Source of the DNA: Escherichia phage SP27
Sequence record: LC494302.1
Strand: one strand, 5' to 3'
Length of the DNA: 64,000 bases
The position numbers were made by a program, and so were the translations under genes. The first letter of the stretch is position 1, and every line of letters starts with the position of its first letter. The notes below the pieces were generated by a model. The model saw nothing but the letters and a program-made list of their open reading frames with translations. It made no database searches and was not told the origin of the DNA. Of the stretch, positions 30,389 to 30,721 are shown piece after piece.

Positions 30389-30721
30389 ATGCTAAATCTA
30401 AATATTCAAGGCAACGTTGATATCACTCCAGCAATCCAAGATGCTATTTACAATGAAGCAAAAAGTCTGGATAAGTACCGTACTTCTTCAGTACTAGACA
30501 TTGGTGTTCATGTTAAGAAAGAGCATAAAACTCAATATGCTGTAACTTTAACTGCTGGTAGTAAATCAGTAACTGCTGATGATGCTGATTTGTATAAAGC
30601 AATTGTTGAATCTTTTGATAAGATGGAAACTGTATTCAGTAAAGACAAAAGCATTAAATTACACCGCCGAAACCATCCAGAACACCCAGTTCTTGATGAT
30701 TTGACAGAAAACGAAGAGTAA
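30389..30721 (+). CDS. hpf: ribosome hibernation promoting factor homolog (HPF/RaiA/YfiA family)
   Basis: MLNLNIQGNVDITPAIQDAIYNEAKSLDKY closely parallels the E. coli HPF N-terminus as recalled; downstream A..DLYKAIVESFDKME matches the DMYAAIDxLxDKL region. Confidence 0.7.
   Translation: MLNLNIQGNVDITPAIQDAIYNEAKSLDKYRTSSVLDIGVHVKKEHKTQYAVTLTAGSKSVTADDADLYKAIVESFDKMETVFSKDKSIKLHRRNHPEHPVLDDLTENEE

Follow-up and report, generated by a model that had tools for sequence, protein, structure and literature searches.

Homologs of the bacterial ribosome hibernation factors HPF and RaiA are known from phages: HPF genes in rV5-like coliphages and in the Cronobacter phage GAP32 were reported by Mizuno et al. 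(2019; PMC6375957), who also proposed that such proteins act against hibernation of the host ribosomes. The only phage HPF tested is that of rV5, which was expressed in E. coli and was present in extracts (PMC6375957). For the bacterial factors, a 2025 cryo-electron microscopy preprint (bioRxiv 10.1101/2025.10.07.680626) gives K80, R83, K87, and K91 as basic contacts common to E. coli HPF and RaiA, K89, T53, position 62, and K26/Q29 as further contacts, and Arg83 as the single conserved arginine contacting m4Cm1402. According to the same source, RaiA residues R95/R96 contact 16S ribosomal RNA and uS7, the RaiA tail heads to the RMF site, and RaiA does not permit the formation of 100S particles. 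Here we describe an HPF/RaiA homolog encoded in a 64,000-nucleotide (nt) stretch of the Escherichia phage SP27 genome (LC494302.1), referred to below as the window. The genome belongs to an Asteriusvirus jumbo coliphage (121Q/PBECO4/slurp01 group), that is, to the myoviruses of ~350 kb.

30389..30721, plus strand: HPF/RaiA-family gene, ATG start, 110 codons, TAA at 30719-30721 (open reading frame list)

The product of this gene is a homolog of HPF and RaiA. The initial annotation, made from the sequence and its open reading frames, had claimed as much, and the claim is borne out by the sequence profile, the predicted fold, and independent database annotation. The profile search that it had suggested as a check returned a significant match, leaving the assignment unrefuted: residues 5-87 match Pfam PF02482 (Ribosomal_S30AE) with 41.0 bits against a cut-off of 23.7 (E 3.3e-10) and cover profile positions 2-84 of 88 (83/88). 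Both sequence likenesses on which it had relied were recovered as well. At the N terminus, LNIxGxNVxITxAI...LxKY aligns with the K-12 translations of E. coli HPF and RaiA, and the central D67-L68-Y69-K-A-I72...D77-K78 matches the D-M-Y-x-A-I...D-K of E. coli HPF, the last two positions being N-K instead of D-K in RaiA. Searches of the PDB sequences with phmmer matched the HPFs of T. thermophilus, B. subtilis, V. cholerae, and E. coli, the best match being T. thermophilus HPF 6gzx (E 4.9e-7). In hhalign comparisons, E. coli HPF was aligned with a probability of 94%, a score of 44, and 29% identity, and E. coli RaiA with a probability of 86% and a score of 37; by these scores (44 vs 37), the phage core appears marginally closer to HPF than to RaiA.

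30389..30649, plus strand: folded core, residues 1-87 (β1 2-8, α1 14-30, β2 36-44, β3 50-56, β4 59-65, α2 68-86; DSSP)

The fold described here is a prediction rather than a solved structure, taken from an AlphaFold2 model built on 13 phage alleles. The model adopts the β-α-β-β-β-α arrangement, with block means of the predicted local distance difference test (pLDDT) of 74-88 over residues 1-80 and 64 over residues 81-90, and it superimposes on ribosome-bound E. coli HPF (6h4n_x) with a root-mean-square deviation of 1.7 Å over 90 columns. All 38 Foldseek matches in the PDB with E < 1e-3 were HPF, RaiA/pY, or plastid pY, most of them from ribosome complexes. The C-terminal dimerisation domain of long HPFs (~60 residues after a linker) is lacking in the 110-residue protein, which has no second Pfam domain, and formation of 100S particles through dimerisation of its own is therefore excluded; such a domain is absent from all the jumbo-phage orthologs as well. 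A Pfam Dodecin match (19.5 vs 22.5 bits) was dismissed as a likeness among small α/β folds.

The HPF region is 99.9% identical to the phages ECO103 4-12-1 and EC22.5-2, 99.8% identical to slurp01, and 96.5% identical to 121Q. RefSeq labels the 121Q (gp533) and PBECO4 copies "HPF/RaiA family ribosome-associated protein," and other records carry the labels "sigma 54 modulation protein/S30EA," "ribosome-associated inhibitor A," and "ribosome hibernation promoting factor." The gene is thus already annotated, and its positional ortholog in GAP32 is already published, so that the initial finding is correct but known; what is added here are the conserved genomic slot, the base composition and selection data, the RaiA-like tail, the loss of R83, and a recombination patch. 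A 2025 survey of hibernation-factor evolution makes no mention of phages. In a profile search of 1.84 billion representative proteins, just 63 proteins were found at E < 1e-3. The nearest matches outside Asteriusvirus are 103-116 residues long, with P0016 and the P0019 cluster on contigs that reach 258 and 351 kb, respectively; P0016 is 73% identical to the homolog of the Salmonella phages Munch, 7t3, and SE_PL and the Klebsiella phage fENko-Kae01. A further hit, P0015 (1605 residues), consists of ~29 near-perfect tandem units of 53 residues that repeatedly match profile positions 45-81 (summed E 2.6e-34), and has the look of either a misassembly or a repeat protein that has nothing to do with HPF function.

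Orthologs were located across the RaK2-like jumbo-phage clade with the flanking lysozyme as an anchor. An S30AE gene occupies one slot in Asteriusvirus, Erwinia phage Hallingskeid, Munch, GAP32, Pectobacterium phage CBB, Yersinia phage fHe-Yen9-04, and Xanthomonas phage XaC1, in the order lysozyme, HPF, terminator, 2-7 small open reading frames, CCA tRNA nucleotidyltransferase, NUDIX, and glutaredoxin or thioredoxin. All seven orthologs scanned outside Asteriusvirus pass the PF02482 cut-off (52.7-78.6 bits), and their identity to the phage protein is 17-35%, or 49% for Hallingskeid, compared with ~53% for the neighbouring lysozymes. In RaK2, ORF030 (locus L014, 3438-3890), an unrelated open reading frame of 150 residues without a Pfam match, is found between the genes for the lysozyme and the CCA-adding enzyme, pointing either to loss or replacement of the S30AE gene or to divergence beyond detection. 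In GAP32 (locus L013, 3403-4016), two open reading frames for HNH endonucleases are inserted between the lysozyme and HPF genes. The Munch-lineage homolog was detected by mass spectrometry in fENko-Kae01 particles (6 spectra). With 220 proteins listed, many soluble enzymes among them, that data set was taken as evidence of expression only, packaging of the protein into virions being rejected; the virion proteome of phAPEC6 (62 proteins) does not mention gp292.

Among eight Asteriusvirus genomes, the pairwise ratio of nonsynonymous to synonymous substitution rates (dN/dS) of hpf is 0.12-0.27, and that of the lysozyme gene is 0.10-0.20 for diverged pairs. The guanine-plus-cytosine (GC) fraction of hpf is 0.348, against 0.346 for the phage and 0.45-0.46 for E. 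coli hpf/raiA. Recent capture from an E. coli host was rejected based on the phage-like GC content, the 26-29% identity to HPF/RaiA, and the clade-wide synteny. Judged from these sequence comparisons, hpf is an old, maintained phage gene under purifying selection and not a recent passenger.

Conservation of individual residues was checked in a MAFFT alignment of 77 family sequences, with the roles of the contact residues taken from the 2025 cryo-electron microscopy preprint introduced above. The residues D67, L68, Y69, and I72 at the start of helix 2 are invariant in 13 of 13 Asteriusvirus alleles, and within the D-[ML]-Y-x-x-I motif to which they belong, D, Y, and I are almost invariant in the family too (D 53/57, Y 57/57, I 48/57). 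Besides D-L-Y...I, the phage clade keeps K78 (equivalent to K80), K85 (K87), K87 (K89), K29, and T53, the first three being invariant; the position equivalent to K91 is I or V, with K90 adjacent to it. The loop between β2 and β3 carries the clade-specific sequence V-H-x-K-K-E-H-K-x-Q (VHVKKEHKTQ here), which is almost invariant. The core has the same net charge and as many basic residues as E. coli HPF.

30650..30718, plus strand: C-terminal extension, residues 88-110 (basic SIKLHRRNHP, variable linker, acidic DDLTENEE; predicted disordered)

The core is followed by an extension whose pLDDT in the AlphaFold2 model is mostly below 50. Within Asteriusvirus, its basic segment (87-97) and acidic end (104-110) rank with the best-conserved stretches of the protein (majority frequencies of 0.87 and 0.90, respectively), and an acidic-ended extension is present in 7 of 7 jumbo-phage lineages, though their cores are just 17-49% identical. 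In two MAFFT alignments, R93/R94 share columns with R95/R96 of RaiA, and the ENEE end aligns with the EEVEEE of RaiA.

As possible roles, the initial annotation had named a freezing of 70S or 100S ribosomes, ribosome protection, and a bias of translation to phage mRNAs. We propose, with a probability of roughly 0.55, that the phage protein is a single-domain factor of the HPF/RaiA fold that occupies the 30S decoding channel of vacant 70S monomers in the manner of RaiA. Its ribosome binding, its 70S mode, and its benefit to the phage are what we infer from the comparisons above. The β-α-β-β-β-α core would lodge between the head and the body of the host 30S subunit, over the A-site and P-site positions of mRNA and tRNA, and would be anchored through the helix-2 lysines K78, K85, K87, and K90 together with K29, T53, and the clade-specific basic loop VHVKKEHKTQ. 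Like the tail of RaiA, the C-terminal extension, with R93-R94 and its acidic end, would run towards uS7 and the RMF site. By excluding RMF, it would keep vacant ribosomes as silent, protected 70S monomers and not as RMF/HPF 100S dimers; a tail of the RaiA type favours a 70S-monomer mode over an RMF-assisted 100S mode. The phage could benefit in several ways: the phage would preserve the host ribosome pool and keep control of it when infection is long or the host is starved, the decoding centre would be shielded from nucleases, and hibernation by the host would be pre-empted. Hibernation factors are described as blocking the access of ribonuclease to the ribosome by Prossliner et al. (2021; PMC7913689). 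The gene has long been inherited within the RaK2-like clade of ~350-kb jumbo phages and is probably expressed from a unit with the lysozyme gene.

Several observations weigh against the proposed RaiA-like role. The equivalog and subfamily models of NCBIfam are not reached: TIGR00741 (HPF/YfiA) gives 36.3 bits against a cut-off of 40.9, and NF007780 (HPF; 23.2 vs 125 bits) and NF007654 (RaiA; 19.3 vs 158 bits) fall far below. On sequence grounds, the phage protein is not orthologous to any E. coli factor. The residue equivalent to R83 is Thr here and non-basic in all jumbo-phage orthologs aligned; R or K occupies the position in 35 of 57 sequences of the wider family. In helix 1 of Asteriusvirus, R17 is replaced by Q, H, or N, K23 by Glu, and K26 by variable residues, and only K29 is kept. 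The R17, K23, and K26 positions are 77-82% basic in the wider family, and the four helix-1 positions including K/Q29 are 74-82% basic, a conserved tendency rather than a formal family criterion. Other jumbo-phage lineages keep Lys at K26. No element varies more within the clade than helix 1 (entropy 1.24). As for the tail, hhalign stops at residue 87, and the register of the RR pair and the acidic ends is seen only in the global MAFFT alignments; homology to the RaiA tail was therefore dropped in favour of an architectural parallel. The rV5 HPF was missing from salt-washed 70S and 100S particles and left the level of 100S unchanged (PMC6375957), and in the literature searched we found no functional study of any jumbo-phage copy. 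With both sides considered, the putative binding surface is in part conserved and in part remodelled; the phage protein probably binds ribosomes, although this is not certain, and it may do so with a different affinity or geometry.

The same remodelling could instead mean that the protein is an anti-hibernation decoy, which through weak or transient binding at the HPF/RaiA site outcompetes host HPF, RaiA, and RMF, so that in starved or stressed hosts the ribosomes escape 100S or 70S hibernation and are left free for phage mRNAs. Lowered affinity is suggested by the loss of R83 and, in Asteriusvirus, of most basic contacts of helix 1; the RaiA-like tail could exclude RMF, the rV5 HPF is not retained on salt-washed ribosomes, and the IF-3 (initiation factor 3), peptidyl-tRNA hydrolase, and tRNA-repair enzymes encoded by the clade point to keeping translation running. 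However, whatever sits in the decoding channel also keeps out tRNA and mRNA, and some release mechanism would be required, and a core that equals E. coli HPF in net charge and number of basic residues does not establish weak binding. We regard the decoy as possible, though improbable.

A second alternative is that the HPF/RaiA fold has been kept without any action on the ribosome and that the KKEHKTQ loop and the acidic tail bind some other RNA or protein of the phage or host. The pattern of conservation is indeed unlike that of the cellular homologs, with a variable helix 1 and with the β2-β3 loop and the tail ends as the most conserved parts, and R83 has been lost clade-wide. The 17-35% identity of the orthologs next to lysozymes that are ~53% identical and the lack of ribosome association of the rV5 HPF agree with such a change of role. 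Yet each of the 38 significant Foldseek matches is a hibernation factor of the HPF/RaiA type, the lysine ladder of helix 2, K29, and T53 are retained, the residues of the β2-β3 loop are ribosome contacts in HPF (bioRxiv 10.1101/2025.10.07.680626), and the tail mirrors that of RaiA, which together make an exapted fold doubtful.

RaiA/pY is a translation inhibitor that competes with initiation factors (cited as Vila-Sanjurjo et al., 2004), and an early protein blocking initiation on host ribosomes while phage mRNAs escape through the phage IF-3 or other factors would fit both that property and the IF-3 homolog of the clade, as well as the sigma-70-like consensus match upstream of the unit (29285-29313), but such a role in host shut-off is very unlikely, since lysozymes, such as the one paired with it, tend to serve late or structural functions, translation of the phage itself would suffer from a general 70S blocker, and HPF/RaiA proteins bind vacant rather than translating ribosomes.

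The RaiA-like occupation of vacant ribosomes that we prefer can be extended to a wider scheme, in which RaK2-like jumbo phages run a ribosome-parking system of their own, with a RaiA mimic, displaced host factors, release by IF-3, and a pause and resumption of development. A deliberately weakened grip on the decoding centre (R83 absent and, in Asteriusvirus, helix 1 eroded) may be combined with an acidic tail that excludes RMF. Host hibernation factors may be displaced and the decoding centre shielded from defence nucleases directed at the ribosome or its RNA, the phage IF-3 may release the mimic selectively for phage mRNAs, and with a Dps-like gene located nearby the phage may pause and resume development in starved hosts. 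We offer this scheme as speculation and would not expect it to hold.

30379..30622, plus strand: divergent recombination patch (~50 differences in 244 bp vs 121Q and phAPEC6; mismatch map)

Strong differences from 121Q and phAPEC6 are confined to a patch from the ribosome-binding site to codon 78; the stretch that encodes the end of helix 2 and the tail matches them exactly. Between the window and 121Q, the synonymous divergence (dS) is 0.55 for hpf, 0.005 for the lysozyme gene, and 0.014 for the downstream gene. The pattern is that of a recombination by which the folded core was exchanged for a diverged allele. The allele swap was rejected as a sign of an arms race; the low dN/dS of the patch (0.13) and comparable patches in neighbouring open reading frames (e.g., 31250-32100 vs phage UB) indicate ordinary phage mosaicism. 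At 31250-32100, a second hot spot of mosaicism, the sequence differs strongly from phage UB between identical flanks. An open reading frame for an HNH endonuclease lies ~9 kb upstream of HPF (20875-21531), and homing endonucleases may contribute to the local mosaicism. Four Salmonella-phage records (SD-1, SD-2, SD-6, and SD-15) seemed to hold truncated HPF copies. Alignment of SD-15_S21, SD-1_S14, and SD-6_S16 (Asteriusvirus records of 310-326 kb; loci L018, L019, and L020) revealed many deletions of 37-180 nt relative to the window, with gaps of 73 and 37 nt breaking the lysozyme frame and with one deletion in each of the three overlapping or lying within the HPF patch (30379-30622). These deletions are probably assembly or mapping dropouts; the records were thus rejected as natural HPF knock-outs and provide no evidence for dispensability.

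29446..30372, plus strand: LysM and Phage_lysozyme gene, upstream neighbour of HPF (Pfam Phage_lysozyme 45.1 bits, LysM 22.4 bits)
30376..30384, plus strand: Shine-Dalgarno-like AGGAAGGTG, 4-9 nt ahead of the HPF ATG (direct sequence reading)
30730-30756, plus strand: intrinsic-terminator hairpin, 11-bp stem, 5-nt loop, nine bases past the HPF stop
29285-29313: sigma-70-like promoter upstream of the lysozyme-HPF unit (consensus match only)
30701..30729, plus strand: sigma-70-like promoter TTGACA-17-TATACT, 11/12 (consensus match only; overlaps the HPF 3' end, last codons)

The position of HPF next to a lysozyme gene, pointed out in the initial annotation, holds: the upstream neighbour carries both Phage_lysozyme and LysM domains and ends 16 nt before HPF. 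Its start is given for the 308-residue form annotated in relatives, and the longest open reading frame would begin at 29413. The lysozyme and HPF genes look like one transcription unit, since only 16 nt separate them and a terminator directly follows HPF, and their co-transcription is probable. The T-tract TTTTCTT (30754-30760) overlaps the 3' arm of the hairpin, so that the whole element extends over 30730..30760; its RNA has a folding free energy of -18 kcal/mol (z -4.1), and none of 200 shuffled sequences was equally stable. Terminators are annotated at the corresponding place in Munch, G17, and UE-S1. The promoter match at 30701-30729 could drive the open reading frames downstream of HPF; it is weak evidence because the promoter-like sites in the HPF region are in total no more numerous than in shuffled sequences. 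Its predicted transcription start lies within the 5' arm of the terminator, and transcripts from it would therefore lack the complete hairpin. An Rfam scan of 27-34 kb gave no match at E up to 0.1.

32321-33433: CCA-adding tRNA nucleotidyltransferase (Pfam, solid)
33542-33943: NUDIX hydrolase (Pfam, solid)
28867-29277, plus strand: 2H phosphoesterase candidate, 136 residues (two H-x-[ST]-x motifs, HVSI and HITV; Pfam 2H-SAK 25.8 vs 27 bits)
34774-35250: macro domain candidate (sub-threshold Pfam match only)

The surroundings had also been described as an RNA-related island, which is true in part. The CCA-adding enzyme and the NUDIX hydrolase are solid, the 2H phosphoesterase and the macro domain are sub-threshold, the 64-kb window has no tRNA genes, and no RNA ligase homolog was found in it. 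Two genes upstream of HPF, the open reading frame at 28867-29277 probably encodes a 2H (LigT-like) enzyme of RNA-end processing, as its motifs suggest. An RNA ligase and a Ro-like RNA-binding protein, which lie upstream in Munch, Hallingskeid, and GAP32, were sought in the window by tblastn, the queries being the RNA ligase of Hallingskeid and Munch_210 (whose slot is occupied in GAP32 and CBB by an annotated RNA-binding protein), and no match was obtained. Elsewhere, the clade genomes encode IF-3, peptidyl-tRNA hydrolase, RNA ligases, and tRNA-repair enzymes. Both the surroundings of HPF and the rest of the genome would fit upkeep of the translation apparatus but are no proof of it, and adjacency alone is weak functional evidence because the genes are collinear throughout the clade. 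At 23492-23932 (plus strand), ~7 kb from the HPF homolog, lies a second homolog of a stationary-phase protein, with a DUF5856 match of 99.8 bits and a weak Ferritin-like match; its 121Q ortholog is annotated as starvation-inducible DNA-binding (Dps-like). Downstream of HPF, 31360-31776 and 31763-32185 (plus strand) are overlapping tandem paralogs of unassigned function, which share a C-terminal GTLP...QY.FIDDTFGID..Y with 43% identity over 54 residues (E 2e-12).

Phage homologs of hibernation factors have been published since 2019, and the only direct test, that of the rV5 HPF, was negative. The slot described here is conserved in at least seven jumbo-phage lineages, with hosts in Escherichia, Salmonella, Klebsiella, Cronobacter, Pectobacterium, Yersinia, Erwinia, and Xanthomonas, and its gene is therefore a better candidate for functional study than the rV5 copy. 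If ribosome binding is true, the protein would show how large, slow-replicating phages manage host translation, whether by protection, parking, or the blocking of hibernation, and the RaiA-like tail set against the missing R83 offers clear mutational handles. While the gene itself is a correct re-discovery of an annotated one, the RaiA-type tail, the clade-wide loss of R83, and the conserved slot are useful new handles.

Compared with known systems, the rV5 HPF (ABI79209) resembles the phage protein as an S30AE protein of ~105 residues encoded by a coliphage. In contrast, it represents a separate, more E. coli-like acquisition that clusters among gammaproteobacterial HPFs (Mizuno et al., PMC6375957), and it was not recovered by tblastn with the phage protein at E 1e-3. 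The short HPF of E. coli (YhbH) is the best profile match for the core and shares the K80/K87/K89 ladder, whereas it has 95 residues and no tail and works with RMF for 100S formation; the phage protein has an extension of 23 residues and has lost R83. GAP32 gp183 (AFC21633 / YP_006987288) and the S30AE/HPF proteins of CBB, fHe-Yen9-04, XaC1, Munch, 7t3, and fENko-Kae01 are like the phage protein in their slot, single-domain size (104-129 residues), and acidic-ended extension, and GAP32 differs from the window by the HNH endonuclease genes between lysozyme and HPF. E. coli RaiA (YfiA, protein Y) is only 26% identical, and its R83, K23, and R17 are not conserved in the phage. Like the phage protein, however, it consists of a single S30AE domain with an extension of ~24 residues (113 vs 110 residues in total), and both tails contain a basic stretch with an RR pair in the same columns and an acidic end (EEVEEE vs ENEE).

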